DNA from: Bacteroidota bacterium
GTDB taxonomy: Bacteria; Bacteroidota; Bacteroidia; NS11-12g; UBA9320
DNA: 64,000 bases
Assembly (NCBI GenBank): GCA_947468275.1
Contig: CANIKO010000013.1
Span: forward strand, 43,721-107,720
Direction: 5' to 3'
Shown: piece by piece, positions 2,497 to 36,797 of the stretch
How the letters are laid out: every line of letters starts with the position of its first letter
Numbering within the stretch: position 1 is the stretch's first letter
Translations under genes and position numbers: made by a program
Notes under the pieces: generated by a model
Told to the model about the DNA's origin: nothing
The model's database searches: none
What the model saw: only the letters and a program-made list of their open reading frames with translations

Positions 2497-4014
2497 TTAA
2501 AACTGAAAATAAATAAAAGGCTGCACTTCACTGCTAGCTACCTGATAAGAAGCGATTATAATGAAGGCTACAATACCTACTTTAATAATCAACGGCAGCA
2601 ATGAAAACCGTTCTTCTAAATTTAACTTAAAGTGTTTTGGTATAAAATGTAAGAAGTAGCCAATTACAATAAAGCTAAATACTTTCCAGTAAGATTGCGC
2701 TTTTAGCATAGCATCAGGCAATGAAAAATTATTAAAGATGCGGCTCAGCATCATTTTTACTGAAGGTACATCATCGGCACGGAAGTATATCCAACAGAAA
2801 CATACAAAATGGAACGTTACTAAACCGGCTATGATATTGTAAATTTTGCTGTTTTGCTTATTGGCCCAAGGCACATATTCCAAATACATTTTATGTAAGG
2901 CTAAGGCTCCACCGTGCAATGAGCCCCAAATAATAAACTTATTGGCTGCCCCGTGCCACAAGCCTCCAAGCAACATTGTAATTAATAAATTTATATACGT
3001 TCTAATTTTTCCTTTTCGGTTTCCACCAAGAGAAATATAAAGATAATCTTTTAGCCAAGTGCTTAGTGAAATATGCCAACGTCGCCAAAATTCGGTAATG
3101 GAAAGCGACACATACGGCGAGTTGAAGTTAAGCGGTAATCGAAAACCAAGCAATAATGAAATACCGATGGCCATATCACTATAGCCCGAAAAATCACAAT
3201 AAATTTGGATGGCATATCCATACACGGCCATCAGGTTATCAAACCCTGAATATAACTGCGGGTCATCAAAAACCCTGTCTACAAAATTGATACTGATATA
3301 ATCAGAGATGACAGTTTTCTTAATAAATCCTCCCATGATTAAGAAAATGGCATGACCAAATTCTCGTTCGGTAAGGCTGAATTTTTTTACTATTTGAGGA
3401 AGAAAATCAACGGCCCGTACAATGGGACCGGCAATTAGCTGAGGAAAATAGGTTACAAAAAAACCAAAGTCTAAAATATTTTTAGCAGGTTCAATGTGCT
3501 TTCGATATACATCTATTGTGTAACTCAATGTTTGAAAGGTAAAGAACGAAATACCAACTGGAAGCACAATTTTATTAATATCAAAACCAGTTCCAAATAG
3601 ATTATTGGAAGCTATATAAAAAATATTTTGTGGATGAAAATTGGTTCCTATCAAATCGTTGACAATACCCGCAAAGTAATTAGTGTATTTAAAGAATACT
3701 AGAAGCCCGAGGTTTATACTCAGACTTATAATTAAAAAGAGTTTTCGTTTAAACTGGCTTTTGGAATAATATATGGCATTGGCCAAATAAAAATCATAAA
3801 TGGTCGACAGCACTAATAATGAGAAAAACCACCCCCCTGTGCGATAATAAAAAAACACACCAAAACAGATGAGGTAAAAACTCCGCAACTGCAATCTATC
3901 GTGTATAAAGGCATACACACCATACATTACAGTAAATATAAAAACAAACAAATACTGACTGAATAACAGTGGTGATGTTTCAGAAAAAACAAATATTTCC
4001 CGGAGGGTTAGCAT
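2497..4014 (-). CDS. MBOAT-family membrane O-acyltransferase (AlgI/DltB/PatA-like)
   Basis: 505 aa and polytopic. It has MBOAT-type segments FWRRWHISLSTWLKDYLYISLGGNR and LLGGLWHGA, including the conserved His. It is the last gene of a four-gene minus-strand operon. Confidence 0.85.
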   Translation of the reverse strand: MLTLREIFVFSETSPLLFSQYLFVFIFTVMYGVYAFIHDRLQLRSFYLICFGVFFYYRTGGWFFSLLVLSTIYDFYLANAIYYSKSQFKRKLFLIISLSINLGLLVFFKYTNYFAGIVNDLIGTNFHPQNIFYIASNNLFGTGFDINKIVLPVGISFFTFQTLSYTIDVYRKHIEPAKNILDFGFFVTYFPQLIAGPIVRAVDFLPQIVKKFSLTEREFGHAIFLIMGGFIKKTVISDYISINFVDRVFDDPQLYSGFDNLMAVYGYAIQIYCDFSGYSDMAIGISLLLGFRLPLNFNSPYVSLSITEFWRRWHISLSTWLKDYLYISLGGNRKGKIRTYINLLITMLLGGLWHGAANKFIIWGSLHGGALALHKMYLEYVPWANKQNSKIYNIIAGLVTFHFVCFCWIYFRADDVPSVKMMLSRIFNNFSLPDAMLKAQSYWKVFSFIVIGYFLHFIPKHFKLNLEERFSLLPLIIKVGIVAFIIIASYQVASSEVQPFIYFQF

Positions 4015-17778: not shown

Positions 17779-19728
17779 ATGGGGGCGCAACAAACTAACT
17801 ATCAAAGTATTACCCCCCCCCATTTTCCATTAAACCGTTTTTCTACTTCTAGCAGATTTATTTTATTCTTTCTGCTCTCTATGTTTTGGATTAATAATTC
17901 TTTTGCCGTATTAACAATTTCATCCGATACTGATTGGGATAACAGTGGAACAAAAAATCCCCCTACAGGACTTGGAGGCTATCAAGAAGGAATCGTAATT
18001 AATGCTGGAAAGACATTAACAATTACTAATCGAAACGGTCTTGCCAAACTTGTATTTAATTCAGGTGTCGACATAACTCTTGGAGTTGGTGCTCATTTGA
18101 TAATCGATAATTCGACTTTAACAACATCAGGTACTAATACTTGGGTTGGAATTATAGCTGTAGGAAACTCGTCCTTAGAGCAATTTACCACTTTTCCTGA
18201 TAAAAGCAGCCCGTACACGACAGCTAAGTGGTCAGGCGTATTGAATTCTAGTCAAACACAAGTAATTTTAACAAATAATACTGTAATTAAGAATACAGAA
18301 ATTGGGATAGCATCTACTTTAGGAGCAATTGTAAGAACTAGGGATTCTGAATTTAATAATTGTCAAAAAGGGATTACAATAGATAGTTATTCCTCTTCTT
18401 TACAGCCAAAGATTAATGCTTGTTATATGATGGGAACAAATTTCTTATGGAATACTGTTTTGTCGGGGTTTAACAGTTCTAACTTTGTCGGAATTTCATT
18501 AACTGGAGTTAGCAGTGTAAATATTGGTGGATGTCAATTTAGAAATGATGATACAAATCCTTATTGTGCTTTAGAAAGAGGAACAGGTATTTTAGCATCC
18601 GAATCTGAGTTTGGGGTATCAACCGAAGGAAATAGGCTGCGAGACCCAGGAAATGGTTGCATAGAAAATTGCATGGAGTCATCTCCTCCTGGAACTCCAA
18701 CAACAGGTGCTTCCTGCCAATTTACTAATTTAAAAACGGCTATTAAAAGTGCCGGAAATACATCAACAAGTAATGAGAGACTCGGTATAAGAGATAGTTA
18801 TTTCGACAATAACTTAACGTGCATTGATATTACTTACTCGCAACATAACGTAATTTATAAATGTGATTTTGCTGCGGTAAGAAGCAATTTAAATGGTTTA
18901 TACGTAGATCATGGCACAAATGCTTCATGTCCTTACACATCTAATAAACTAATTGAATTTATAACCACTAACTATGCAAAACAAGTTAGGGTTGTAGAAA
19001 ATGAATTTAACTTTGATGCAAGTCAATGCAATTATATAGCAATTAACAGATCAGGCACCCTTAAATCACTAATTAAAAAGAACAACATATTAAATAGTAA
19101 TTCAGGACTTGGTACAGGTGATAATGTTAGAGGAATAGTTTGCTATTATGAAAATCCAAATCTTTGGATAGAGTGTAATACTTTTCAAAATCTTACAACA
19201 GACTTATATATCTATGATTTTGCAACTACATTACGCGACCAAAATCAATATGACAATGATATACATCATAATAGTAATATTTTCGACGATTACAGTGGTA
19301 AATCAGGTTGTTTTAACCTTATTAATAATGGCACTTTTAATGCACTTGTTTTACCTAGCACTTACACTTGGTTTAAAACTAATGGTGGCTCTTACCCATC
19401 AATAACATTTAGAACAGATGGTATAAGTTGTTCTTCTGATAATTGCAACGAATTAATTGAAGGTAAGGTTAAAAAAATAAGTTCAGAAACTATTTCACTC
19501 TATCCTAATCCTTCTCACAATATAATTTATCTTACCCTTAAAGAAGGGTTAGAAACTAATGCTACAGCTATTTTATTTAACTCAGTAGGACAACAATTAG
19601 ATTTAGTAAAATTGCAATCTAAACAAATTGATATTAGTCAAGTTCCTGATGGAATAATTTATATAAGAATAAAGAATGGTGAAAATATTTACAACCAAAA
19701 ATTTACTAAAATTAGCAAGTTAAAATAA
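17779..19728 (+). CDS. Secreted protein of unknown function with a T9SS type A C-terminal sorting domain
   Basis: It has a signal peptide (SSRFILFFLLSMFWINNSFA) and possible beta-helix repeats. The CTD is ISLYPNPSHNIIYLTL...DGIIYIRIKNGENIYNQKFTKISKLK. Its stop overlaps the next start (TAATG). Confidence 0.6.
   Translation: MGAQQTNYQSITPPHFPLNRFSTSSRFILFFLLSMFWINNSFAVLTISSDTDWDNSGTKNPPTGLGGYQEGIVINAGKTLTITNRNGLAKLVFNSGVDITLGVGAHLIIDNSTLTTSGTNTWVGIIAVGNSSLEQFTTFPDKSSPYTTAKWSGVLNSSQTQVILTNNTVIKNTEIGIASTLGAIVRTRDSEFNNCQKGITIDSYSSSLQPKINACYMMGTNFLWNTVLSGFNSSNFVGISLTGVSSVNIGGCQFRNDDTNPYCALERGTGILASESEFGVSTEGNRLRDPGNGCIENCMESSPPGTPTTGASCQFTNLKTAIKSAGNTSTSNERLGIRDSYFDNNLTCIDITYSQHNVIYKCDFAAVRSNLNGLYVDHGTNASCPYTSNKLIEFITTNYAKQVRVVENEFNFDASQCNYIAINRSGTLKSLIKKNNILNSNSGLGTGDNVRGIVCYYENPNLWIECNTFQNLTTDLYIYDFATTLRDQNQYDNDIHHNSNIFDDYSGKSGCFNLINNGTFNALVLPSTYTWFKTNGGSYPSITFRTDGISCSSDNCNELIEGKVKKISSETISLYPNPSHNIIYLTLKEGLETNATAILFNSVGQQLDLVKLQSKQIDISQVPDGIIYIRIKNGENIYNQKFTKISKLK
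17813..17821 (+). repeat. C9 homopolymer inside codons 12-15 of the 17779 gene
   Basis: I read ACC CCC CCC CAT. It lies between the ATG and the signal-peptide h-region. This is a striking tract in AT-rich DNA. Confidence 0.9.
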
Positions 19729-22598
19729 TGGTTTCGAGAAAAATACTTTCCATTCTTGCAATCTTATGGGTAAATTTTACTTATTCCCAATCTAATAATT
19801 TTTGGAATGTGATTGATTATAATGCAATCACATTCCAAAATAATATACCTGTAGTTACGAATCAATCCTTAAGAGGAACAACTACTGCAAGTATTTGCAA
19901 CAGTAAAGGAAAGGTTGTGCTTTACAGTGATTTTAGTGAAGTTTATGATGGAAACCATATTTTGATAACTAATGGAAATCTGACACCTTATTGTATTATC
20001 GCCTCCTTATTTATTGCCTTAAATGACAGCACTTACTATTTATTACAAAAAAACCAAGAAAATACCGATACTAATGTTAATACCACATGTAGAACAACAG
20101 GTGGTTTATTATACAGCATTATAAGGTTGAAGAATGATAAATTTAGTATAAATGCAAGTGAAAAACAATTAATACTAAAAAGAGGAATAATAGGTAATGA
20201 TAATGTCTGGTCAATAGCGGTTACAAGGAATGAAAAAGGCAAATATTATTTAGCTGAAAGCATCAATGATACAGCATTCATTTTTTCGATTGACACTGCA
20301 ATAATTTTGAAAAGTGTTTTTCCATTAATTAATTTTTTCAGTTTATCCCCTTGTGCTAATTCTGCTGACTGCAAATTATTTCAAAGAACAAAATTAATAT
20401 TTGATCATATAGGAAATAGACTATATGCAACTTTAGATGAAGATTTGAATGCTACTATTCTATTAGGTAAAAAAGTTGATATAGGAATTGGGCGTTCATA
20501 TAAGGTAATTAGATTTGACTTTGATAAAAATTCTGGAATAATAACCAATCCTGTAATTATACTTAAGAACCTTAATTACTTTACTGCGTTCCCAAATATT
20601 AAACTTAATGATGTGTTTGATTGGGTATCGCTTGATCCAAACGCTATATTTAGCATTGATGATAAATTTATGTATATCAATGAATATAAAAATCATCAAA
20701 TACTGAATATAAATGGAAAAGGCTATTCGCAAAAAGACACTTCAGTTTTAATCCAGGTAGATGTGGATAACGGGAATCGTATAAATATAAGTTTGAGTAA
20801 TAAATCATTGCCACCAAAGCTCTTAAAACAGGCACCTGATGGTAGAATTTTTAATTATTATATTGAAAAAATATCTGGTATTCTTTACTTTAGGTCTGAT
20901 GTAATACAATTGCCAGAAAAAAATGGATTAGCATGTTTATACCAACAGAATGTTGATAAATTGCCATTATTAAAACCAATAAACTTTAATGTTTATCAAA
21001 CTTCCTATCACCTCCATGATTATTTGAGATTAGATTTTAAAGTTACTTACGATTGCAAAGCCAACATCCAATTTGTAAATAATTCATTTAGTGAAGCACA
21101 ATTTAGTGATTACACTTGGTACATTAATAAACTGAACGGTAAAACCGATACGCTGTATGGTAATGCTCCAAGTATAACAATTGGAAAAAGCGGCAAATAT
21201 CCTTACAAGGTTTTTGGCCACAGCCCTTCAAAACACTATGGCGAGTGGTTTTATGATACTCTTTACATTGATATTCCTGAAAAACCGGTAGCTAATTTTA
21301 ACACAAAAGACTCCATTGTTTGCAGGTATTTGCCAGTTCATTTTAATAATTTAAGTCATACTAAAGATATCAATCCTAATTCAACTGTTAAATACGTGTG
21401 GACATTTGGTGATGGCGGTCCTTCATCCAATGTTTTTGAACCATCACACACCTTTACCCAACCCGGATATTATACCGTAAGTTTGTTTTACAGCAATGGT
21501 TATTGTGATAGCACTCTGGTAAAAAACCAATACATCCATGTGGTAGATGCTCCCAAACCGGGCTTTACCGTGGCCAAAAGGCAGGGATGTTCGCCATTTA
21601 CAGCACAGTTCATTGATACTGTTAGTTTAAACATTACTAAAAAAGAGTACTTATTTACCGATTCATTATTATGGAAGCCTATAAGCAGCCCTAAGTTCAA
21701 CTATACTTTTGCCAAACCAGGCCATTACTGGGCGGTGCAGAAACTTTACGGCTACACAGGATGTATAATAAGGACAGATTCTGTTCAGGTTTTTGTAAGC
21801 AAAGGATTATTGACAAGCGACAGCATTAGGATAGTTTCCGCTTCATATAATTTGGATAATATCCTGCGTTTAGATTGGCAGCCCAATATGGCGGCTACTA
21901 ATTATCAGGTGTATAAATCGGTGAACGGAACCACATTTTTACCCCTTGTTCAAACAAAAGACACCTTTAGTTTTGATAAATCAATACCTTCAAACGTGAT
22001 ATATTATAAGGTAAAGGGTATTGACAGTTGCGGCTCGTTTTCATCCTCCTATAATATAGTATCCCCAGCCTTTATTTCGGGTAATACTGTAAATGGAAAT
22101 GAAGCGGCACAAATTAATCACTACTTGCAACAGGGATTGGGAATACCTTTAAAAATCGAATTATTAGGCAGTTTTGATACAAAGTCTCAGTTTAACCTGA
22201 CTAAGTTCAATCCTGCCAATCCTTTTAATGACAATGATTTTGCCCGACAAGATTACCTGAGAAAATGCTACCGTCTTTCATCCTCTTTTGCGGCACTAGA
22301 AATGTACAGCAATACTTTTTGCATGGATTATGTGCCAGTGGTTTATATCCCTAACTCGTTTACTCCTGATGGCAATGGCTTGAATGACAAATTTGGCCCT
22401 TTAGCATATGGTATAGAATCTTATACAATAACTATTTATAACAACTGGGGTGAAATATTATACACAGGTTCCAAACCTTGGGATGGCAGATATAAAGAAG
22501 AAGTAGTAATGGATGGAGTATATTTTTATCAGGTATCCTTAATTGAAAACAGCCACAATTTAATTTACAAAAAAGGGATAATTCATGTATTGAAATAA
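19728..22598 (+). CDS. Large PKD-domain surface protein with a T9SS type B (gliding-motility-associated, CHU_C/TIGR04131-like) C-terminal domain
   Basis: It has a PKD-like segment (VKYVWTFGDGGPSSNVFEPSHTFTQPGYYTVSL) and an Fn3-like segment. The C-terminus is VYIPNSFTPDGNGLNDKFGP...IYNNWGEILY...WDGRYKEEVVMDGVYFYQV...GIIHVLK. Confidence 0.75.
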   Translation: MVSRKILSILAILWVNFTYSQSNNFWNVIDYNAITFQNNIPVVTNQSLRGTTTASICNSKGKVVLYSDFSEVYDGNHILITNGNLTPYCIIASLFIALNDSTYYLLQKNQENTDTNVNTTCRTTGGLLYSIIRLKNDKFSINASEKQLILKRGIIGNDNVWSIAVTRNEKGKYYLAESINDTAFIFSIDTAIILKSVFPLINFFSLSPCANSADCKLFQRTKLIFDHIGNRLYATLDEDLNATILLGKKVDIGIGRSYKVIRFDFDKNSGIITNPVIILKNLNYFTAFPNIKLNDVFDWVSLDPNAIFSIDDKFMYINEYKNHQILNINGKGYSQKDTSVLIQVDVDNGNRINISLSNKSLPPKLLKQAPDGRIFNYYIEKISGILYFRSDVIQLPEKNGLACLYQQNVDKLPLLKPINFNVYQTSYHLHDYLRLDFKVTYDCKANIQFVNNSFSEAQFSDYTWYINKLNGKTDTLYGNAPSITIGKSGKYPYKVFGHSPSKHYGEWFYDTLYIDIPEKPVANFNTKDSIVCRYLPVHFNNLSHTKDINPNSTVKYVWTFGDGGPSSNVFEPSHTFTQPGYYTVSLFYSNGYCDSTLVKNQYIHVVDAPKPGFTVAKRQGCSPFTAQFIDTVSLNITKKEYLFTDSLLWKPISSPKFNYTFAKPGHYWAVQKLYGYTGCIIRTDSVQVFVSKGLLTSDSIRIVSASYNLDNILRLDWQPNMAATNYQVYKSVNGTTFLPLVQTKDTFSFDKSIPSNVIYYKVKGIDSCGSFSSSYNIVSPAFISGNTVNGNEAAQINHYLQQGLGIPLKIELLGSFDTKSQFNLTKFNPANPFNDNDFARQDYLRKCYRLSSSFAALEMYSNTFCMDYVPVVYIPNSFTPDGNGLNDKFGPLAYGIESYTITIYNNWGEILYTGSKPWDGRYKEEVVMDGVYFYQVSLIENSHNLIYKKGIIHVLK

Positions 22599-25076: not shown

Positions 25077-25550
25077 TTAAACTACCGAAATATCAAGTAT
25101 TTCAAAATTTATGATGCCGGCAGGCACCAAAACTTCAACATGGTCTCCTATTTTTTTACCCATGAGCCCCATTGCTATTGGAGACTTAACAGAAATTTTA
25201 CCTAATTTAAGATCTGCTTCTTTTTCTGATACAATAATATAATTAACGCTTGAATTTGTTTTTTTATTTAAAACAGTAACCTTGGTCAATATTCCAACTT
25301 TGCTTATATCTACTTTGGTTTCGTCTAATATTCGGCTATCTCCTAAAATATTTTTCAGTTTGGCTATTTTCATTTCCAACATCCCCTGCGCCTCTTTTGC
25401 AGCATCATATTCCGCATTTTCAGAAAGGTCACCTTTTTCCTTTGCTTCAGCTATTTGCCCACTAATACGACGTCTTTCTACCTTTTCTAATTGTTCAATT
25501 TCCTTCACTAAAGCATCGTATCCATCCTTGGTCATGTAATTTATAGCCAT
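25077..25550 (-). CDS. greA: Transcription elongation factor GreA
   Basis: I re-set the start to MAINYMTKDGYDAL (157 aa). It has GreA coiled-coil and C-terminal motifs (GDLSENAEYDAAKEAQ; SPIAMGLMGKKIGD). The 24 upstream residues of the track ORF look non-coding. Confidence 0.9.
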   Translation of the reverse strand: MAINYMTKDGYDALVKEIEQLEKVERRRISGQIAEAKEKGDLSENAEYDAAKEAQGMLEMKIAKLKNILGDSRILDETKVDISKVGILTKVTVLNKKTNSSVNYIIVSEKEADLKLGKISVKSPIAMGLMGKKIGDHVEVLVPAGIINFEILDISVV

Positions 25551-25574
25551 AATATTATTTTTTTTAAATGTGAT

Positions 25575-25615
25575 ATAAAAATAAAGTTGCACCAACCGTA
25601 TTCGGCTGATGCAAC
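25575..25615 (-). terminator. Hairpin plus T-tract between the PorV-like gene and greA (minus strand GTTGCA-TCAG-CCG-AATA-CGG-TTGG-TGCAAC TTTATTTTTAT)
   Basis: The stems are read from the sequence. It is either the terminator of the upstream three-gene operon, a leader attenuator of greA, or both (see findings). Confidence 0.45.
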
Positions 25616-25619
25616 GGTA

Positions 25620-25627
25620 CAAATATA
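25620..25627 (-). promoter_or_regulatory. Candidate -7 box TATATTTG upstream of the hairpin and greA
   Basis: The plus strand reads caaatata, which is TATATTTG on the minus strand. It lies 70 nt upstream of the greA ATG. Confidence 0.3.
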
Positions 25628-25669: not shown

Positions 25670-26746
25670 TTATTCACTCTGATTTCCTAAAGACATTTTT
25701 AAACCAATAGAATGAGTACCAGAAAAAGGACGGGTATCGCGATATGAATAGTCCAAGGCAAATCGATTGCCATCTTTTCCGTACGGCAACTCGAAGGTGA
25801 CCCCTCCCATCAAACCTGTACTTGCGGTACGACGTGTATCATAACTCATAATACCTTTTTCATAAGCATAACCCATACGAACCATAAACATTTTTTTGTA
25901 GGTATATTCAGCACCAAAAGTGGTTTGATTTAATGAAAATGCATTATAAGTAAAATTGGCAGCTAGTGTTAAGGTATGAAAATTGGTTTCATCATTTTTA
26001 TCAAGCTTGATATCATGTGCACCACCAATATTCATTAATGCGGGGATATTATACTTGGCTACCCGTTGATTCACAGTAGCCTCTTGGTTGTCTTTCGGAT
26101 TAAGCCTTTTTATAGAAATACCATCTCCAGAATATTTCACATCCGGACCAATATTTTTAATGGAAACTCCAAAATGGGTATCATCTGCGGTTTTCCAACT
26201 TGTTTTATATTGAATACCTGCATCAATAGCAACTCCTTGGGCTTTTAGATTAGAAGAATTTTCAGAAAAAACCCTTAATAAAACACCACCTGTGATTCGT
26301 TCAGTAAATTTTCGTCCATATCCTAAACCAATATTCGTTAAACGTGGTGAAAAATTACCAAGTCCTCCATTCGGTTGCTGAACGGTGGTAATAGGGATAT
26401 CACCTAAATCAATTGAACTAATGGAAAGTCCGATGGCGTTATCATTCCCAAGATTTTGAGCAAAACCAAAATTACTGATATTAACACCTGAACCTGATAA
26501 CCAACTTGTTCTGGCAAAGGCAATATCTGTTTTAGGGGTATTTACCAGTCCTCCAATATTCATGTACATAGACTCTATTCCCTTTATACTACTTTGGGAG
26601 GCCCAACCTAAACCTGATGAACGAGCCCACCCATTTATAACAAGTTGATTCGCGCTTGCCTGACCACCTCTGTCAGGATTTCCAGCGAAGGCTGAAACAC
26701 TTATTAATCCAAGGGCTATTATATTTACAATTCTTAATTTACTCAT
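25670..26746 (-). CDS. PorV/PorQ-family-like (FadL-type) outer-membrane beta-barrel protein
   Basis: I re-set the start to MSKLRIVNIIALGLISVSAFA (signal peptide). The N-terminal pattern is GGQASANQLVINGWARSSGLGWA...NIGGL. The protein has alternating beta-strand character and ends ...HSIGLKMSLGNQSE. It diverges from the canonical PorV motif (…PDARAxGMGD…NPA…), so it looks more like a paralogue. Confidence 0.5.
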   Translation of the reverse strand: MSKLRIVNIIALGLISVSAFAGNPDRGGQASANQLVINGWARSSGLGWASQSSIKGIESMYMNIGGLVNTPKTDIAFARTSWLSGSGVNISNFGFAQNLGNDNAIGLSISSIDLGDIPITTVQQPNGGLGNFSPRLTNIGLGYGRKFTERITGGVLLRVFSENSSNLKAQGVAIDAGIQYKTSWKTADDTHFGVSIKNIGPDVKYSGDGISIKRLNPKDNQEATVNQRVAKYNIPALMNIGGAHDIKLDKNDETNFHTLTLAANFTYNAFSLNQTTFGAEYTYKKMFMVRMGYAYEKGIMSYDTRRTASTGLMGGVTFELPYGKDGNRFALDYSYRDTRPFSGTHSIGLKMSLGNQSE

Positions 26747-26816
26747 TATTATATTTTTAAAACTTTTGAATTCGTGAGTTTTTGGTTTCATTTTTTTAAA
26801 TATTACAATTGTATTT

Positions 26817-29800
26817 TTAGAAAGAATCCAAATCTAATTCACGCATTACCCCCATCCATTTAATCACTTTTTCACCTAATCCAGGAGCATTAATATGTAT
26901 CAGGTAAACTCCACTTGCAATTGGCACTTTCGCATCATTTTTCATGTCCCATAATACATCAGTGGACTGATCATCTTTTTTAATCCTTCTAACAAGAGTA
27001 CCGTCTATGGTATAAATTGAGATATCACATCGCATCGGTAAATTGGTAAATTTCACTCTGTTTTCAATGGATGTATTTTCATAATCAGAATATGCGTAAT
27101 AAGGATTAGGAACGACGTTTATCATATCTAAAGCTTTAATTCCATGCTTTGGAGCTACTTCGGTAAATACCTCATTGGTATTAAACTCGTAGCGAGGGTT
27201 ATCAAAATTCAAAGAATTATCCAATGTTTTATAAAACCTATAAGGCTTTTTAACTCTTATTTTAAATCTCACTTCGGTTTCAGGTACGGGCATTCCATTA
27301 ACTTCTTTCATTTTATAACCTGTAGCTAAGTATGCAGGTATAGCATACATACACTGATACATTACTTTATTAACAATTATACTTCTAGCTGTTTCAGTCA
27401 TGACATTATCAGCATCTTTAAGTATATTATAATAGGCTTGACCTTCATCATAACCAGGCAAAAATGGTTGTTGAGATACAACTGCACCTTGATATGAGCC
27501 CATTAAATAGATATAATGTCGACCCCCATTGGCAATAATCCCTGTTCCACTATTTGCATAAAAACCTGCATCAGAGGTCGGATTCCATTTCATATCGCGG
27601 CCATTGTTTGAGTATTGACGAGAATCTTCGCCAAAAACTATATTCAATCGTTCGCCTGTTTCAACATTTATCGCATATCCAGGGAACCAACTACGACCAG
27701 TTTCACCAGGAATCTCTTTTCCATCAATATCTAAAGAAGCATGAGCTCTAAGGTTAAATTTTTTGTTTGAACCCTCGCTCAATATATTATCATCACTCAT
27801 TTCTAGAACACAAGACCTTGTCCATTTTGATTTATCAGGAGTAATAACAAATTCGACACTTGACAATTGGTATAATCCCCATTGACTATTGGTAGGAGTT
27901 CCATCATAGGCTACTCCTTGGATTATAGTGGCGGTAAATTTGGCACCTGCATTATTCGTAAAGCGAGAGGCTAAACGATATGGGCCGATACGACCTTCCC
28001 AAAGTTTTTCATAACTTTCAAATGGATCGATGGCATTCCCATTTATAGCATAATCATTTTCTGTTGGATCAGAAAAACCACCGGCCTTTCCATTAGTACC
28101 AGAGTGCAGCCAATTCCAAAATGGCACACCATCAACATCGTGCATTCCTGAAAGCCACTCCTTACCTTTATCGGCAAAAGTAACTTCGCAACCTAATGCA
28201 CCATTGGTTTCATCCAAATCTGGATTTCCTGGGTCTAATACTTGATCAATAGAAACTGCCATACCCCAATCGGCAAGCTTTGCTGGTTCTTTATACCAAG
28301 CGGTATCCGTTCTTTTTGATGCAAATTGCCATTTATTACCTTTAGTTATTATTTGCTCATTATGTATATTTATCTTCTCTTCAGAAAATATAGTATCTGG
28401 TGTTCCTCCAATATTTTTCTTAATAACAATCCAACGGGTAACATTACCTTTTACTCCCGCTTCACGTTTCCGAATTGAAGAAGCCGTTCCACTCAAATTT
28501 ATTGAATCTTTTAATTCAATAAGCACAAGTTCAAAATCTCCTTTTGGAACTTTCAAAGGGTCAATAATCGAAACCTTCACTGGGCCTTTACCTACTTCAT
28601 ATATAGGATTAAGTACTTTATAGGGAGGAGTACTAATTATCTGTAATTCAGTTTCAGTGGTTAAATCAATAATATTACCGCCATTTCCACTTCCTTCTAT
28701 TCTTTTAATACGTGGTCCGCCACCATAGGAGGTATTTAATTTGGCTCCACCTAAACGAGGTTCTGTATTTCGAGGGGTTGCAACAATTGGTTCCATTTCA
28801 CCCAATAAATATTGATCTTCTTTGCTTAAAGGAGCAGCAGCATACGGAAAAACCATATAATAATACGTTTTAAAATCTACTAATGATTTATTAGACCCCG
28901 TAGCAAATGCATCTTCTTTAATTGACAATGAATGCACCAATCCTTTATTGGGGGCATCTATCATTAATTTTGGTAAAGCTTGTCCAAGGGTTACATCATA
29001 AGGTTTATTAACCAAACGGATGATATTATTTTTTAAATCAGCAACAAATATTTCACGAACCTTGTCTATATTTTCTAAATCTCCTGTACCTACACTTCCG
29101 TCTTTACACTGAAAAATTCTATATCCTTCAAATTTATATACTTGTGGATTTTTATTGGCATCGAGCACTGTTTTACTAAAACTCTCAATTTTTTTAGTAT
29201 TACCCAACATAAATATTAATTCATTATCTAATTCCTGAACGGTAGTAACTGTTGAAGGTGGACCAACTAATGGAACAAAACAGTTATTAAATAATGTTTG
29301 AGCTTTATCACTGGCTAATTTCAATAAAGCTAAAGAACCTTCCGCTCCACCAGTACTTGCCCTCGCCCAAACTACACCTACCGTCAATTTATTAAATGCT
29401 CCTGACTTTAATGTAAATGGCCCACTTGTTTGCATAAATCTTCGATCTGCTGCGGGATTTCCTGCTGAACGTTCGTTCCAGTTTCCAGTTACTTTTGGAT
29501 CGGTATCAAATGGGAATAAGTAATTGGTGCAATTTGTTCCTGTTCTGCCGCTCTTGTAATCAAGTGTCATACAAGTGCCGTTTTTCCACCGACCTGTTAG
29601 GTAATAATAATAATGAATAGGTCGTTCTGGGTTTCCATAAACAGTAAAATCATTATCATAATACACAAATTTGCTCATTCCTAATTCGAATGTGGTATCT
29701 CTTCCATTCATAAGAGTATCTTTTTTAGGTCCTTCAAAAAAATCAACCCCAACAGATGGAGGATTCAAACCATATCCTAATATACCTTCATCATTATCGT

Positions 29801-30788
29801 CGCCATTATATGCAAATCCTAAACTTCGTCCGACATCACACCCCACGTAATCATCCTTATAATTTCCCAAATCCGCATCCACCCATTCACCAAAATAAGT
29901 ATTATATAATGTGCTTGCGCCACGGTTAACAATTCGAGTAGTATAAAAAGTCATATTATTTATCTCATCATTTGATGCGTAAGCAAATGCAGTTGTATGC
30001 AATTCTAAGCCAATTGGTAAGGCTCCTGTTTCAGCATGATTATTTCCTTTATCATTATATACGAAATATAACATTTCTGTAGGTTGTGCTTCAGGTTTAT
30101 TATCATTAGTCCCATCTAACTTTACTCCTCGACACTCATTTTGCAAAACCGGATAATCTCCTGAAATTGGATCATATATTCCATTTTTATTAGCATCATA
30201 ATAAGGAGCCATTGGAGGGGTATTAGCAGATGGATTTCCAGGCCAACCAGCAATATTATCTGATAAAGTAGGTGCACCACTTGCAATATTTGTAACATGT
30301 TCTACTATTTCAGATTTCAATACCTTATAAATATTATCCCATTTTTTGCAGGTAACTTCATCGGTGTTGGACTGGTTATCAAGTGGTCCTGGCCAAAAGT
30401 CAGAACCGCCTTGTCTGTAGGTCATTGCAGCAAGCTTTAAGGCACCCGACCCACCTTTACCATCATAACCTCCTACCCAGATTGCTCCAGAAAATAAAGA
30501 ATGCTTTCTTACTGAGTTAACATTAGTAGCAATCTTTGGTATCTCATATTTCGGATTAGAAAGATCCCACCACATATCGCCACCGTTTAAAATTTTGGTG
30601 CGCACATTGTTTACATCCAGGTCAGCACTAGCTGTAGATGGATCACATGATGCTGCATACTTCATAAGTTTGTGAGCCACTATCGCAGGCTTCACAAGTT
30701 TTTCTCCAACATTTTCTTTTGCTATCAGGTTTGTTGCCACACCTAAAGCAAGTAATGAAAACAGTATAAATTTAATTGTTTTGTTCAT
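26817..30788 (-). CDS. Giant (1323-aa) secreted protein of unknown function with a beta-sandwich sorting-domain-like C-terminus (T9SS type A / FlgD-Ig-like)
   Basis: It has a signal peptide (FILFSLLALGVATNLIA). I recognise no catalytic motif. The C-terminus is VVPNPYYAYSDYE...CDISIYTIDGTLV...LWDMKNDAKVPIASGVYLIHINAPGLGEKVIKWMGVMRELDLDSF. Confidence 0.55.
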   Translation of the reverse strand: MNKTIKFILFSLLALGVATNLIAKENVGEKLVKPAIVAHKLMKYAASCDPSTASADLDVNNVRTKILNGGDMWWDLSNPKYEIPKIATNVNSVRKHSLFSGAIWVGGYDGKGGSGALKLAAMTYRQGGSDFWPGPLDNQSNTDEVTCKKWDNIYKVLKSEIVEHVTNIASGAPTLSDNIAGWPGNPSANTPPMAPYYDANKNGIYDPISGDYPVLQNECRGVKLDGTNDNKPEAQPTEMLYFVYNDKGNNHAETGALPIGLELHTTAFAYASNDEINNMTFYTTRIVNRGASTLYNTYFGEWVDADLGNYKDDYVGCDVGRSLGFAYNGDDNDEGILGYGLNPPSVGVDFFEGPKKDTLMNGRDTTFELGMSKFVYYDNDFTVYGNPERPIHYYYYLTGRWKNGTCMTLDYKSGRTGTNCTNYLFPFDTDPKVTGNWNERSAGNPAADRRFMQTSGPFTLKSGAFNKLTVGVVWARASTGGAEGSLALLKLASDKAQTLFNNCFVPLVGPPSTVTTVQELDNELIFMLGNTKKIESFSKTVLDANKNPQVYKFEGYRIFQCKDGSVGTGDLENIDKVREIFVADLKNNIIRLVNKPYDVTLGQALPKLMIDAPNKGLVHSLSIKEDAFATGSNKSLVDFKTYYYMVFPYAAAPLSKEDQYLLGEMEPIVATPRNTEPRLGGAKLNTSYGGGPRIKRIEGSGNGGNIIDLTTETELQIISTPPYKVLNPIYEVGKGPVKVSIIDPLKVPKGDFELVLIELKDSINLSGTASSIRKREAGVKGNVTRWIVIKKNIGGTPDTIFSEEKINIHNEQIITKGNKWQFASKRTDTAWYKEPAKLADWGMAVSIDQVLDPGNPDLDETNGALGCEVTFADKGKEWLSGMHDVDGVPFWNWLHSGTNGKAGGFSDPTENDYAINGNAIDPFESYEKLWEGRIGPYRLASRFTNNAGAKFTATIIQGVAYDGTPTNSQWGLYQLSSVEFVITPDKSKWTRSCVLEMSDDNILSEGSNKKFNLRAHASLDIDGKEIPGETGRSWFPGYAINVETGERLNIVFGEDSRQYSNNGRDMKWNPTSDAGFYANSGTGIIANGGRHYIYLMGSYQGAVVSQQPFLPGYDEGQAYYNILKDADNVMTETARSIIVNKVMYQCMYAIPAYLATGYKMKEVNGMPVPETEVRFKIRVKKPYRFYKTLDNSLNFDNPRYEFNTNEVFTEVAPKHGIKALDMINVVPNPYYAYSDYENTSIENRVKFTNLPMRCDISIYTIDGTLVRRIKKDDQSTDVLWDMKNDAKVPIASGVYLIHINAPGLGEKVIKWMGVMRELDLDSF

Positions 30789-30856
30789 TCTATTATTTTT
30801 AAAAAATTATGGTTTTTGTAATATTTCGCTTTTATATTTTTCTTATCAGCTTTTAA

Positions 30857-33800
30857 TTAAAGAGTAAACCTTACTCCTAATCTCATTAATCTTGGTGCGG
30901 CATAATTAAAAGGATTATTAACACTGATGTTATACAAGTCAATAAATGATTGCTGACTTACTTGTTGAGAAATTTTTTGCTGTCCTTCTGGTGAACTTAG
31001 GTAACCATCATTATTAGGTAAGCCCGAGAATGCATAAACACTATTGACAATTTTACCATTGAAAAGATTTTGAACTGTAAAAAACACTGTTAAGCCTGTA
31101 ACATTAATCCTATCGTCTTTAATTTGTTTTTTCTTAAATTCATGATAGTGTTGAAAATTAACATCAGCCTTAAACTGCCAAGGCATTCTTGAACCAAAGG
31201 GATTTCCTTTTATTTGACTACGCGTTACTGTTCCTAGTGCCGTTTGTGCGGTCGCTGTTGGGCTTAAATTGGCTGTATAAGGGGCACCTGAACGGGCCAC
31301 AACAATAAAACTGGCATCAGAATTTGCAAATATTCGCTTTCCAAACCATACTGGACCATTATACTCCTTACCCCCTTGATACCCATAGCTAAATGTGGTA
31401 TTAAAATTATGACGAAAATCTACGTCTAAAGGATATAAGGAACGAAGATTAGGTTGATTTGCTTGAATTAACGCTGATTGAGAATTTATATTAGAACCTG
31501 TTCCATCAGCAAATAATAAGGTGTAATTGGCTGTCATTTGGAAATTCTTCAAACCTCTATATTGATATTCTGCCCTAAACGCTTTGTTGGTTGAAAAATC
31601 TATATTAGCATAACTTGTATATGAAACAGGGTAAGCTTGACTGTATCTATATTGTCCAAAATCATTACGAATTTCTGAATAGGACATAATTAAACTGATA
31701 GAGGATACATTGCTAAGCTTTTGTTTGTAACCCAATTCATACATAGTTTTAACACGTGGCTTTAGAGCCGCATTTGGCAAGAACCTGCTTTGATCGGATT
31801 GAAGAAAATAGTAGGAACTGATTGGGGTAAATGTAGCTCCATCAGTTGGGCGCTGAGTAAGCACATCGTAATTCGCAAAGAAAAGGGCTTCCTTGTTTAT
31901 AGGAAATGAAAACCAAACACGTGGTAATATATTTACTTGTGGTTGGTAATCTTTAAAGGCCTCCTTGACAATATCCTTATTATTTACATCAACTAAATAA
32001 GGTTGAATAACGTTGCTAGCAGTTTGTTGAGCTAAAATTTCAGGATTAGCTACTTCTACACCTTGAGCATCGTACCATGTATTGTTATTTCTGTAACCTA
32101 AAACCTTAGTAGGGTTCTTTGCATTATTTACATATATGGCATAGTTGTCGCCAATATTATCAGGATGATTTATTTGCAGACCATTCAATTCACTTACTTC
32201 CCCAACGGTTTTAATTGGATAAAGTGAATATGGATCTTTTAAGGTGGATTGATTAGCATCGTATCTTTCTACCCTAACCCCTACCCTGAAAATCATATCT
32301 TTTATAGCAAATTTATCTTGCAACCAAGCTGCACTGTATATCGGGGCAAATGAGCCTACACTGCGATTCTGTTTGTCATTCAAAAAATCATTAATCCCAA
32401 ATTTCTTGCGGGTTCTATTACCTAAATAATCATATCCAGAATAACTTACATACTGATTATTTTTATTATTCAAATCATCAGCACTAAACATATTTAAGTT
32501 AAGGTCATTGGGTGATAAGGAATTTACATCAATATAAGAAGTTTCCGTAATTTTATTTCCGTAGGCATCTACAGCCCCTTTTGCAATTAATTTAGCCCTC
32601 AAGTTTTTATCAAATGTAGATTGTTGGTCTGCATCTATACGAACATTATATTTAACAGTATCCAAAAACCTACCCTGATCATCATAGGATTGAGTGCTAT
32701 TTAACATATATTCACCTTGTTTCACTTGATCTAAATTAGCAATATGCTTATTAGCTAACTGAGGCATCAATATCCATAAGGAATTTGCACTTAAGCCATA
32801 AGAACTTAATATATTTTGTTCATAGGTCATACCAAACTGGATATCGTGTTTATTTTCTTTATTTTTCCCAGTGTTAATAGATGCCTCACCAATAGCATAG
32901 GCTGAAATTCTTTCCTGTTGGCTTTTACTATAGCCGGCTAATAAAGTACCAGGATTAGCCCATAATGAATAGGTAGTGGGCAGTGAATATCCATTTAGCA
33001 AACCATTAAATGTGGCGATCATCCCATCACTTATTGCGCCATTTAATCCATATGTATTCTTAAAATAATCAAAGGCATTTTCGGTATATCTGCTTCTTAA
33101 AACATTTTTATCACTCGCTTGATAAGTAATCATTGTGTCGCGAAATCCAGTAAGTTCATAATAACCTTGACGAACAACTGTATCGCTTTTTCCATTTTTA
33201 GTTTCAATAAATTTTTGTGGGGCATCTTTATATTCATATACTGGTGCACGGTAATGAGTAAATTTACCTACATATCCATAATCAAACACATTATCTTTAT
33301 GCTCACTGGACTGACTTTTACCAATACTTGTTTGGTAATCGGCACGTATTGAATAAAATGCATCAGAAACCAAAGGTTTTTTAGCATCCTTGTCTTTCTT
33401 GTCTCCACTTTGATAACCAATTTTTTGGGTGTATCTTAAATATCCACGATACGTTTGGTTGGTATTTAATGCATATTCATCAAAATTTAACAATGAAGAA
33501 GTATAACTATAGCCTTTCGTTTCTTGAATAGCGCCAGTTGCGAACAAGGTTAAAACCGAGCTTTTGGAAGGTGTATATTCAAATTTTGCATTTAATACAC
33601 CTGAATATAATGGAACGTTTTGACGAGCCTTATTCAGTACCAAATCATTTTGGGTTAAAAATGATGACGTAGTAATAAAACCTCCTCCGCTCGGATTAGT
33701 AGTTAATGGATTTTGCTTGATATTGTTCAGAACATCATCTTTTACTGTCCATGAGCCCAATACCGTTGGACTAGGATCTTTTTGGTACTCTAAATGTCCT

Positions 33801-34639
33801 GAAATATTATAACCTATTAGCACCCGTTCTTTGTCTCCACCGCCCCTATTAATAATTTTTATTGGACCTGAATAGGCTAATTCTAGGGTATTGTAATGCC
33901 ACTTATCAAAAAGACTTGAAGTTACATACTCATAGTATTGAGATCTTCTTCTGCTAGGGCCTTTGGTTGTAATATTAATGGCTCCCCCTGTAAGGTCACC
34001 AAACATTGCAGGTACCCCGCTTTGAATAAGGTCGATTTGCTCCTGACCAATAGTTGGCATTGCCGAGCTACCTATAACCGCTACACCATCTACAAACAAG
34101 CGTGTACCATCCGTTCTATTACCCAAAAATGAAATACCACCTCCGGATGAGTTTACACCCGACGAGGTATTTGCAATAGCCGCTAGGCCTCTTTGTGGTA
34201 ATTTTAATAGATCTTTTGATGTAAGTGTGTTTTTATTTGCATCTTCTTCTACTAATTTCTTTCTATAACGAATAACATCTACTGCACCTAAATCTTTTCC
34301 ATCTTCACTTGAGATGGATAATTCGATATTCCAAAACGTTATTTTACTACTGTTTACAGTTACTCCTTCAGCCTGATATTTTGTATATCCAACATAGCTT
34401 ACTTCAATATTGTATTCTCCAGGATCAATTCCTTTTATAAAATAATTACCGTTGTCATCGCTTGAAGTAGAAGCTTTCACAATTCCTTCTTTTTTTACCA
34501 CTACTGTGGCATAATCAAGCGCTGAACGTGTTTTTTTGTCTGTAACTTTTCCTCTAATCTCACCATAATTCGATTGGGAGTATCCCAAACCTGACAAGAG
34601 TAATAGTACCAAAACGCTTAAGTAATGTTTTAAAGTCAT
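30857..34639 (-). CDS. TonB-dependent-receptor-like outer-membrane protein with an N-terminal CarboxypepD_reg-like domain (1260 aa)
   Basis: It has a signal peptide and a CarboxypepD_reg-like segment (GEIRGKVTDKKTRSALDYATVVV..PGEYNIEVSYVGY). A plug-like segment follows (ISFLGNRTDGTRLFVDGVAV..PAMFGDLTGGAINITTKGP). The C-terminus is barrel-type (PRLMRLGVRFTL). Confidence 0.75.
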   Translation of the reverse strand: MTLKHYLSVLVLLLLSGLGYSQSNYGEIRGKVTDKKTRSALDYATVVVKKEGIVKASTSSDDNGNYFIKGIDPGEYNIEVSYVGYTKYQAEGVTVNSSKITFWNIELSISSEDGKDLGAVDVIRYRKKLVEEDANKNTLTSKDLLKLPQRGLAAIANTSSGVNSSGGGISFLGNRTDGTRLFVDGVAVIGSSAMPTIGQEQIDLIQSGVPAMFGDLTGGAINITTKGPSRRRSQYYEYVTSSLFDKWHYNTLELAYSGPIKIINRGGGDKERVLIGYNISGHLEYQKDPSPTVLGSWTVKDDVLNNIKQNPLTTNPSGGGFITTSSFLTQNDLVLNKARQNVPLYSGVLNAKFEYTPSKSSVLTLFATGAIQETKGYSYTSSLLNFDEYALNTNQTYRGYLRYTQKIGYQSGDKKDKDAKKPLVSDAFYSIRADYQTSIGKSQSSEHKDNVFDYGYVGKFTHYRAPVYEYKDAPQKFIETKNGKSDTVVRQGYYELTGFRDTMITYQASDKNVLRSRYTENAFDYFKNTYGLNGAISDGMIATFNGLLNGYSLPTTYSLWANPGTLLAGYSKSQQERISAYAIGEASINTGKNKENKHDIQFGMTYEQNILSSYGLSANSLWILMPQLANKHIANLDQVKQGEYMLNSTQSYDDQGRFLDTVKYNVRIDADQQSTFDKNLRAKLIAKGAVDAYGNKITETSYIDVNSLSPNDLNLNMFSADDLNNKNNQYVSYSGYDYLGNRTRKKFGINDFLNDKQNRSVGSFAPIYSAAWLQDKFAIKDMIFRVGVRVERYDANQSTLKDPYSLYPIKTVGEVSELNGLQINHPDNIGDNYAIYVNNAKNPTKVLGYRNNNTWYDAQGVEVANPEILAQQTASNVIQPYLVDVNNKDIVKEAFKDYQPQVNILPRVWFSFPINKEALFFANYDVLTQRPTDGATFTPISSYYFLQSDQSRFLPNAALKPRVKTMYELGYKQKLSNVSSISLIMSYSEIRNDFGQYRYSQAYPVSYTSYANIDFSTNKAFRAEYQYRGLKNFQMTANYTLLFADGTGSNINSQSALIQANQPNLRSLYPLDVDFRHNFNTTFSYGYQGGKEYNGPVWFGKRIFANSDASFIVVARSGAPYTANLSPTATAQTALGTVTRSQIKGNPFGSRMPWQFKADVNFQHYHEFKKKQIKDDRINVTGLTVFFTVQNLFNGKIVNSVYAFSGLPNNDGYLSSPEGQQKISQQVSQQSFIDLYNISVNNPFNYAAPRLMRLGVRFTL

Positions 34640-35852: not shown

Positions 35853-36782
35853 TTACTTTATCTCAATATGCCTCGACTCTACTTTAGCTCCAAAAAACAA
35901 TCCTGCTATTTGATTGAAAGTTTTAGTATCATCGGTGGTATAAAACATTCTTTTAAAATTCTTTTCACATACTTCATTTATTTCAGAATGCCGGATTAAA
36001 TAATCTTTTAAGCTATCCGCGACTATTTTATCCTGTGATATAATTTTAATTTGGGATGGCAAAAACTCTTTAATCTTTTTTAAAAGCAAAGGATAATGAG
36101 TGCAACCCAAAACTATTGTATCAATTTCAGAAGATTGAAGAAATAATTCATCAAAATATTTTTTGATAAAATAATCAGCACCTTCACCATTAAATTCATT
36201 GTTTTCAACTAATGGAACCCACATTGGGCAAGCTTGCTGAAAAACTTTTATCTCCGGAAAAAATTTTGAAATTTCAATTGGATAGGAATCCGAAGCTACC
36301 GTACCCGAAGTTCCCAATATTCCGATATGCCCAGTTTGGGTATAATTTCCTACAATTTCGGTCGTGGGCCTAATTACTCCCAAAACCCTTCTATTGGGAG
36401 CATCTTCTGGTAAATAATTCTGCTGAATTGAACGCAATGCCTTAGCTGATGAAGTATTGCAGGCCAATATTACAAGGTTGCATCCCAGATTAAATAATTC
36501 TTGGACACATTGTTGGGTGTAATTTGTTACCGTATCAAAGGAGCGATTACCGTATGGCGACCGGGCATTATCCCCTAAATATATATAATCATATTGAGGT
36601 AATTGGTTTACCAATTCTTTTAGAATGGTAAGGCCACCATAACCAGAATCGAAAACTCCGATTGGGCCGGGAAGTAATATTTCGGAATTTTGATTAATGA
36701 TTTTAGAATTAATTTTAGGCTTACGAAAATAGGCAAGGGATTTATTTTTCGAATATGCTTTTATAAAAAAAAACTCCGGCAT
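35853..36782 (-). CDS. murI: Glutamate racemase
   Basis: It has IGVFDSGYGGLTILKEL, ILACNTSSA and VLGCTHYPLL (both catalytic Cys contexts). The track start at 36806 is TTG and the first ATG is at 36782. The ~40-aa N-terminal extension is unusual, so the true start is uncertain. Confidence 0.85.
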   Translation of the reverse strand: MPEFFFIKAYSKNKSLAYFRKPKINSKIINQNSEILLPGPIGVFDSGYGGLTILKELVNQLPQYDYIYLGDNARSPYGNRSFDTVTNYTQQCVQELFNLGCNLVILACNTSSAKALRSIQQNYLPEDAPNRRVLGVIRPTTEIVGNYTQTGHIGILGTSGTVASDSYPIEISKFFPEIKVFQQACPMWVPLVENNEFNGEGADYFIKKYFDELFLQSSEIDTIVLGCTHYPLLLKKIKEFLPSQIKIISQDKIVADSLKDYLIRHSEINEVCEKNFKRMFYTTDDTKTFNQIAGLFFGAKVESRHIEIK

Positions 36783-36797
36783 CAAATAACACCGGAG
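36765..36797 (-). terminator. Intrinsic-terminator-like hairpin after the skp-like gene (minus strand CTCCGG N12 CCGGAG followed by T9)
   Basis: The 6-bp GC-rich stems are at 36774-36779 and 36792-36797, followed by the T9 run at 36765-36773 (read on the minus strand). The first ATG of murI lies inside the loop/3' arm. Confidence 0.5.

Follow-up and report, generated by a model that had tools for sequence, protein, structure and literature searches.

Three conserved neighbouring genes in uncultured Bacteroidota: a TonB-dependent-transporter-type protein, a giant protein with a predicted type IX sorting domain and a putative PorV/PorQ-family barrel

Do three neighbouring genes for a transporter-like protein, a giant secreted protein and an outer-membrane barrel build one assembly on the bacterial cell surface? 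This question is raised by a 64-kb window of Bacteroidota DNA (the whole stretch that was analysed, i.e., positions 43,721 to 107,720 of contig CANIKO010000013.1, assembly GCA_947468275.1), in which three co-directional genes on the minus strand, here called g1, g2 and g3 and together the trio, follow one another. The spacer between g1 and g2 is 68 nt, and that between g2 and g3 is 25 nt from the first g3 ATG or 70 nt from ATG 26746. This arrangement had been noticed in a sequence-only reading of the window and is confirmed by the list of open reading frames (ORFs), which together with the translations is the basis of the gene coordinates in Table 1. The answer proposed here is that g2 would be a type IX secretion system (T9SS) cargo that stays on the barrel g3 and works beside g1, a protein of the TonB-dependent transporter (TBDT) type; whether the three genes encode such a cell-surface assembly is, in our judgement, an evenly balanced matter.

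The tail of g2 and the barrel g3

g2 was modelled with AlphaFold2 (AF2) in two parts, residues 24–1223 (the body) and residues 1170–1323 (the tail). The tail model has a pLDDT of 78, with values above 90 within the sandwich, and its best PDB match in Foldseek is PorZ (5m11, E 8.7e-6, 23% identity); further fold matches are PorU (6za2) and the PorV-bound substrate C-terminal domains (CTDs) 8gl8_D and 8glk_D of the Flavobacterium johnsoniae translocon, with TM-scores of 0.67–0.70. In terms of sequence, 14 of 15 g2 family members match TIGR04183 (best E 1e-5), and 12 of the 15 match the C-terminus of the PorZ model, at 24.8 bits in the window g2 and 24.8–36 bits across the members examined. The last ~100 residues of g2 are accordingly described here by what the model predicts, namely the T9SS CTD fold, a seven-strand Ig-like sandwich. 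The sorting-domain-like ending claimed in the sequence-only reading is thus upheld as a real but sub-threshold CTD, scoring 20.4 bits against the TIGR04183 cut-off of 23 and matching the T9SS CTD fold.

Beyond this sandwich, g2 carries extra residues past the normal end of a type A CTD, as had been claimed, and they are kept in every relative examined. All full-length g2 tails recovered (loci L001 to L083) end in ...KW[FMY]G.[MIL][RKH]..D[LFY][DN].[FY], the last residue being Phe or Tyr. The three type A cargoes of the window, which score 29–40 bits and lie above the CTD cut-offs, stop about 8–10 residues sooner past the G[IV]Y motif than g2 does. The aromatic-ended extension is a hallmark of the g2 family. 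In the isolated AF2 model it is a coil of falling confidence, as would be expected of a partner-binding segment, and this conserved piece is an obvious candidate for a specificity element in the binding of g3.

g3 is the gene whose start has two options. ATG 26746 is the likelier one, because it opens the signal peptide MSKLRIVNIIALGLISVSAFA and gives the length of the relatives. The protein passes the PorV/PorQ family model NF033709 with 145 bits (cut-off 90, residues 46–367), and the g3 proteins of two related loci, L084 and L085, score 131 and 123 bits in the same model. It lies below the cut-offs of PorV (NF033710, 72.7 bits against 250), of PorQ (NF033711, 70.3 bits against 220, with an alignment from end to end), of PorV2 (NF052325, 31.1 bits against 325, the g3 type spanning 28–37 bits) and of the Pfam PorV model (PF19572, 17.8 bits against 27). 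A profile of 28 g3 sequences (A6) matches F. johnsoniae PorV (6h3i_F) with an E-value of 2e-15; among its PDB matches at E<=10 there is no chain named BamG. The g3 type therefore falls in the family of 14-strand-type outer-membrane barrels, with a trace match only to TIGR03519 (PorP/SprF). The earlier description of g3 as a divergent barrel of the PorV/PorQ type holds good by the family model; g3 is not a canonical PorV by the PorV score, so the trio is not the known porU-porV locus.

Comparison with a Sphingobacteriales contig (L085) places g3 further. A separate gene of 402 aa (20695–21903, minus strand), 5 kb from the trio of that contig, reaches 444 bits against PorV2 (cut-off 325). Since the g3 orthologue there coexists with a distinct PorV2 gene, the g3 type is a further, separate PorV/PorQ subfamily without a model of its own. 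Among 85 related loci and the window, no additional PorV-family paralogue besides this PorV2 gene turned up. It adjoins lpxK and lies near gldH, and the role of PorV2 is itself termed putative. In five loci (L009, L031, L064, L067 and L068) the g3 orthologues contain in-frame stops, which may reflect pseudogenes, assembly errors or an artefact of ORF extension.

The body of g2 and the protein g1

The body of g2 belongs to a very widespread type of protein. More than 4573 proteins matched g2; the best 120 listed are nearly all full length, none of them has a Pfam domain, and where names are given they read 'hypothetical' or 'T9SS type A sorting domain-containing'. In an exhaustive search with the tail excluded, residues 24–1223 match 7110 clusters (50% identity) at E<=1e-3, and 1983 clusters at E<=1e-30. 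Full-length homologues number from hundreds to thousands for each of g1, g2 and g3, and the features of the trio are thus no product of chance. Column conservation reaches 0.8–0.9 in residues 51–100, 251–350 and 451–500, and the A-K-E-N junction of the signal peptide is kept in the family consensus. The core is rich in invariant Asp, Asn, Gly and Trp, and its motifs include NGGDMWWD, AAMTYRQ.G.DFWPGP and NDKGN.H.E, followed by WVD.DLGN..DDYVGCD, YNGDD.DEG.LGYG.NPP and ADRRF.Q..GPF.

The claim that g2 has no assignable motif was also sustained, since its body matched no Pfam or NCBIfam model and no convincing PDB fold. The same lack of Pfam and NCBIfam matches to the body was seen in 15 family members and six distant representatives, in which the matches are limited to the tail and to occasional inserted BNR or Big_9 domains. 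A 63-sequence g2 profile gave no match to PDB sequences even at E<=10. The body model has a pLDDT of 82.9 and a pTM of 0.70, and consists of ~11% helix with the remainder beta or coil. A comparison with viral predicted structures returned generic FN3 or tail-fibre-like noise only. Four relatives (P0425, P0436, P0282 and P0479, the last being L085 10001–14689) are 150–350 residues longer, with mid-protein inserts of the Big_9/cadherin-like or BNR/PSII_BNR type.

Several known identities were tried for g2 and rejected. As PorU, it scores 18.3 bits in NF033707 against a cut-off of 420, and the alignment is confined to residues 1210–1300, opposite the CTD at the C-terminus of the model; Pfam Peptidase_C25 has no match in g2 or the scanned relatives, and the mostly beta body model is without the gingipain-like alpha/beta catalytic fold. 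Neither PorU (6za2) nor PorZ (5m11) is among the 50 Foldseek matches listed for the body, and the earlier remark that PorU features are missing from g2 was correct. As PorZ, g2 scores 24.8 bits in NF052228 against a cut-off of 260, and again the tail alone is aligned. The weak fold matches of the body are enzymes of the GH15, GH116 and GH94 types, e.g., cellobiose phosphorylase and dextran dextrinase, through their beta-sandwich parts. Such glycoside hydrolases and phosphorylases join a beta-sandwich to an (alpha/alpha)6 domain; g2 as a glycoside hydrolase was rejected, since an (alpha/alpha)6 domain is missing from a model with ~11% helix. By inspection, a catalytic His/Cys dyad and a metalloprotease were likewise rejected: HExxH is absent, and the region around the invariant His251 and Cys317 is all beta.

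g1 appears from its sequence and from its family to be a divergent, unusually long protein of the TBDT type with a SusC-like N-terminal domain. It has a signal peptide, and its layout is that of a CarboxypepD_reg domain, a plug and a large barrel-type region, with a TonB-box-like LGAVDVIRY found by inspection between the N-terminal domain and the plug. The CarboxypepD_reg-like domain named in the sequence-only reading lies above the Pfam cut-offs and is the only Pfam domain in the window g1. The plug-like segment of that reading stands at family level and not by Pfam on the window protein. Profile A4, built from 32 g1-family sequences, aligns at positions 118–260 to residues 12–171 of the colicin I receptor Cir (E 5e-11), the alignment including the plug motifs IDGV...IEQV.VI.GG.PAQYGD..GG.INITTK; other PDB plugs matched by A4 are those of PirA, PfeA and FyuA. 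In full-length g1 homologues of 36–45% identity Plug PF07715 is present, and TonB_dep_Rec PF00593 occurs in many homologues at 36–40% identity and in the g1 of L085. Moreover, both Plug and TonB_dep_Rec domains are present in the g1 orthologues that adjoin the trio in Chitinophagales and Sphingobacteriales contigs. None of the three window proteins, searched singly against PDB sequences, gave a useful match. An extra g1 paralogue of ~1228 aa, without a g2 or g3 of its own, lies between murI and the dehydrogenase gene in L001/L002 (307–3993) and also in L008, L015 and L021.

Gene order and surroundings

With each GTDB species represented by one genome, a g2 relative was present in at least 591 genomes, and the 80 best of these, with 85 g2 copies, were used for locus analysis. 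The best 80 loci are all from uncultured Bacteroidota, labelled Flavobacteriales, Chitinophagales, Bacteroidales, Sphingobacteriales and similar; no cultured or model organism with the trio was found among them or in the two lists of homologues. Where the contig leaves room, 70 of 79 g2 copies have g1 immediately upstream and 69 of 77 have g3 immediately downstream, so that the order g1-g2-g3 is kept for ~89% of g2 copies. The nine exceptions to the trio order are all second g2 copies: four stand alone in unrelated contexts (L007, L047, L050 and L075), and five are tandem copies directly after g3 (L023, L048, L053, L078 and L081). The readable second copies retain the same C-terminal extension, and the retention of the tail by lone paralogues is consistent with the use of g3 in trans. 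The order also persists at 37–40% identity in Chitinophagales and Sphingobacteriales contigs with different upstream genes. That is to say, the trio is syntenic in relatives of several orders.

The coordinates of the trio and of its surroundings are collected in Table 1, together with the result of a simple hairpin-plus-T search for terminators over the related loci.

Table 1. Features of the locus. Positions are those of the window; the three junction lines refer to related loci, in which the trio-internal gaps are shorter than the g3/greA gap, so that the comparison of terminator counts is biased.
Feature	Position	Strand	Description and basis
g1	30857-34639	-	1260 aa; ORF list
g1 CarboxypepD_reg-like N-terminal domain	34319-34558	-	residues 28-107; PF13620 56 bits, PF13715 50.9 bits, both above cut-offs
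g1 plug domain	33860-34288	-	~residues 118-260; alignment of family profile A4 to colicin I receptor
g2	26817-30788	-	1323 aa; ORF list
g2 Sec signal peptide	30720-30788	-	residues 1-23, MNKTIKFILFSLLALGVATNLIA, followed by KEN; translation read directly; no lipobox cysteine
g2 most conserved core	29289-30656	-	residues ~45-500; column conservation
g2 C-terminal sorting-domain-like Ig sandwich	26850-27113	-	residues ~1226-1313; sub-threshold hidden Markov model (HMM) and fold match
g2 family-specific C-terminal extension	26820-26849	-	VMRELDLDSF, ~9 residues; tail alignment
g3	25670-26791	-	373 aa in ORF list; 358 aa from probable start ATG 26746
Intrinsic-terminator-like hairpin and T-run	25576-25615	-	3' of g3; 13-pair stem, 7 GC pairs, then TTTATTTTT
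g1/g2 junction			terminator-like site 0/75; median gap ~44 nt
g2/g3 junction			terminator-like site 1/75; median gap ~33 nt
g3/greA junction			terminator-like site 43/63; median gap ~77 nt
T9SS cargo gene	17779-19728	+	Pfam/NCBIfam
T9SS cargo gene	19728-22598	+	Pfam/NCBIfam
T9SS cargo gene	48283-50535	+	Pfam/NCBIfam
T9SS cargo gene	53546-55543	-	Pfam/NCBIfam

From the operon-like spacing and a terminator only after g3, the three genes probably form one transcription unit. The hairpin and T-tract that had been seen after the trio were found again, at 25615–25586 on the minus strand. This hairpin overlaps a mechanically listed greA ORF with a TTG start (25077–25622, minus strand); since it lies inside that ORF, greA begins at ATG 25550, which gives a product of 157 aa matching its homologues. 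By Pfam and NCBIfam, the genes upstream of the trio are two OmpH/Skp genes, murI and a D-2-hydroxyacid dehydrogenase gene, and those downstream are greA and then a HIT-family gene; the flanking genes are housekeeping genes. A second terminator-like hairpin (36774–36797, minus strand, 10 pairs and a T-run) is located between the downstream ompH gene and murI, so that the start of the transcription unit may be murI or the dehydrogenase gene instead of g1. About 50 nt upstream of g1, GAAGTTTG comes close to the Bacteroidota -7 promoter motif.

The organism itself has a T9SS, as four other CTD cargo genes in the window indicate. In three of them the CTD is of the canonical type A (Pfam Por_Secre_tail 33 bits; TIGR04183 40.4 and 29.4 bits); the product of the fourth is a PKD protein whose tail is of the CHU_C kind, type B. 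porU, porV, porQ and porZ were not found among the scanned ORFs of the window. Elsewhere in it, a DltB-like MBOAT protein (2497–4014, minus strand; TIGR04091 168.9 bits against a cut-off of 375) is encoded beside mannose-1-phosphate guanylyltransferase-like and KdsD-like genes, in what looks like a cell-envelope glycan cluster.

A proposed assembly and its alternatives

First of all, g2 would be exported to the periplasm through Sec, and the T9SS would recognise it by its C-terminal Ig-like domain and move it across the outer membrane. It would then be handed to its own PorV/PorQ-family barrel g3 and not to the general shuttle PorV, and its CTD would stay uncleaved on g3, in the manner of PorZ on PorQ and PorU on PorV, with the nine-residue aromatic-ended extension contributing to specific and stable binding. 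The ~1200-residue body would be displayed on the cell surface, beside or over g1, as an extracellular component for capture or processing with a role like that of SusD-like or BtuG-like lipoproteins, and g1 would import the captured ligand with TonB energy. Of the parts of this proposal, g2 as a T9SS cargo retained on g3 seems to us somewhat probable, and the partnership of g1 and g2 is tentative, with less than an even chance. In its fullest form, the trio would be a TonB-dependent uptake machine with a non-lipoprotein capture component, i.e., a T9SS-delivered g2 permanently docked on g3, which we consider possible though doubtful; docking through an uncleaved PorZ-like CTD together with the conserved aromatic extension is doubtful to the same degree. 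The ligand is possibly a glycan, a very weak suggestion from the modelled body, whose glycoside-hydrolase-like sandwich matches are insufficient to name it.

The retention of the CTD is proposed because the g2 tail is closest to the CTDs of PorZ and PorU, whose retention on PorQ and PorV is known. These two CTDs are described as uncleaved and bound, and it has been suggested that cognate PorV-like barrels have this property in general (PMC10202324). Cognate shuttles for type B cargo have been shown experimentally (PMC12618676), and cognate PorV-like barrels are an already accepted idea. For g1, a TBDT gene followed by the gene of a surface partner is the standard arrangement in Bacteroidota, as in SusC/SusD and BtuB/BtuG (PMC12578637), and g2 is the presumed surface partner of g1 because Bacteroidota TBDTs usually work with an adjacently encoded one.

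The likeness to the PorZ-PorQ and PorU-PorV pairs of Porphyromonas gingivalis lies in a large surface protein whose CTD is thought to remain uncleaved on a barrel of the PorV/PorQ family, to which g3 also belongs by its family score. However, the body of g2 is unrelated by HMM and fold to the beta-propellers of PorZ and the C25 peptidase of PorU, g3 is below the equivalog cut-offs of PorV, PorQ and PorV2, the g2 and g3 genes are adjacent and linked to a TBDT gene, and the g2 tail has the aromatic-ended extension. PorV2 is another non-canonical PorV/PorQ paralogue in the same kind of genome (L085), but g3 scores 28–37 bits in its model where the true PorV2 of L085 scores 444 against the cut-off of 325. 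A cargo genetically linked to a dedicated barrel is reportedly also seen in PG1035-PorP of P. gingivalis. The type B cargoes and PorP/SprF-like barrels of F. johnsoniae resemble the trio in that the linked, dedicated barrel decides the fate of the cargo (PMC12618676); in contrast to them, the g2 tail is type A-like or PorZ-like and not CHU_C/type B, and g3 is of the PorV/PorQ family and not PorP/SprF. With SusC/SusD and BtuB/BtuG the trio shares a transporter gene in first place and a presumed surface partner next, and g1 has the SusC-like CarboxypepD_reg domain and plug. Yet g1 has no SusC/RagA model, the window protein matching no NCBIfam model at E<=0.01, and g2 has neither a lipobox nor a SusD or BtuG domain and is 2–3 times larger, so that the trio is not a SusC/SusD pair, as the sequence-only reading had held. 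Unlike SusD and BtuG with their lipid anchor, g2 would be anchored through the T9SS and a barrel.

A number of results weigh against this assembly. The window g1 has no Pfam Plug match at E<=0.01 and PF00593 is likewise absent, the window g2 tail lies under the TIGR04183 cut-off and has no PF18962 match, and the PDB fold matches of the g2 body are weak (TM-score at most 0.23, root-mean-square deviation 10–14 Å), with no informative relative. g1 paralogues without a g2/g3 partner exist. The terminator comparison carries the bias given with Table 1, and greA and the HIT gene follow g3 about as faithfully as g1 precedes g2; gene order alone is therefore no proof of a functional link. We infer that g2 depends on the T9SS, binds g3, retains its CTD and is a partner of g1, and we likewise infer the ligand, the physical complex of three proteins, the contact of g3 with the g2 tail and the functional role of g1.

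The alternative that survives best, though we think it unlikely, is that g2 is a T9SS cargo of the ordinary sort (adhesin or enzyme), anchored or shuttled by its cognate g3 in the way of type B cargo and PorP/SprF-like partners, with g1 functionally unrelated. Pairs of cognate shuttle and cargo genes have precedent (PMC10202324, PMC12618676), g2 paralogues without g1 occur just as g1 paralogues without g2 do, and some g2 relatives have gained Big_9/cadherin-like or BNR inserts typical of surface adhesins. However, g1 stands directly before the primary g2 in nearly all genomes of the several orders; the two share a strand, the gap between them has a median of ~44 nt and is free of terminators in 75 of 75 cases, and the order of a TBDT and then its surface partner is the standard one in Bacteroidota (PMC12578637).

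Quite unlikely, in our view, is a second alternative, in which g2 and g3 are a lineage-specific attachment-complex module of the T9SS, equivalent to or replacing PorZ-PorQ, and g1 is a neighbour only. PorZ is indeed the best match of the g2 tail by both sequence and structure, g3 aligns over the whole PorQ model and has the length of PorQ, and the trio genes are usually single-copy, well conserved (46–90% identity among listed homologues) and set amid housekeeping genes. Nevertheless, the PorZ alignment is limited to the tail at 24.8 bits against 260, the g2 body is nearly twice the size of PorZ with no PorZ (5m11) or PorU fold among its 50 listed matches, and g3 is below the PorQ cut-off (70 against 220). 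Such a module would also leave the tight, terminator-free linkage of g1 unexplained, and the extra g2 paralogues look more like cargo than like parts of a core machine.

That the three genes are neighbours by descent only, without functional connection, is suggested by the constancy with which the unrelated greA and HIT genes stay beside g3. We regard it as improbable, since a CTD-bearing protein adjoins a member of a CTD-binding family, the spacing within the trio is tight and terminator-free with a terminator before greA, the trio persists where the upstream flank differs, and tandem-duplicated g2 copies stay beside it. The last alternative is a T9SS-independent unit in which g1 exports or assembles g2 by a TonB-dependent secretion route, as the layout of CarboxypepD_reg, plug and barrel that it shares with Oar of Myxococcus might suggest, or in which g3 is a BamG-like accessory of a nearby BAM/Skp cluster. 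Despite the two OmpH/Skp genes 2–3 kb upstream of the trio and the FadL/PorV-like 14-strand barrel of BamG (PMC12578637), it has hardly any chance: g2 combines a Sec signal peptide with a CTD of the T9SS type, a folded protein of 1300 residues could not get through a plugged 22-strand-type barrel, the g3 profile matches PorV and no BamG-named chain while g3 passes the PorV/PorQ family model, and the OmpH genes are separated from the trio by murI, the dehydrogenase gene and a terminator-like hairpin and are not beside it in many loci.

The assembly of g1, g2 and g3 proposed above is made of parts from known superfamilies, i.e., TBDT, T9SS CTD and PorV/PorQ. No description of the trio was found in the literature on PorV/PorQ paralogues, on PorV2/PorU2 or on the T9SS with TBDTs, and the g2 family, the g3 subfamily, the extended tail and the fixed union with a TBDT appear, on the searches made, to be without earlier description or curated model. 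The g2 family is very large and has no domain model, name or solved relative, and its carriers are mostly uncultured Bacteroidota of freshwater, groundwater and wastewater. The fixed pairing of g2 with g3 extends the idea that a cognate barrel governs whether the CTD is kept and where the cargo goes beyond PorZ-PorQ, PorU-PorV and type B/PorP. If the link to g1 is true, Bacteroidota would have in it a new means of giving a transporter a surface partner, and if the trio is indeed an uptake machine, the T9SS would build nutrient-import complexes and the destinations of cargo would be set by a wider 'address code' made up of PorV paralogues. In summary, the trio offers a compact three-gene system in which the control of cargo fate by PorV paralogues, and import machinery that may be built by the T9SS, can be approached together.

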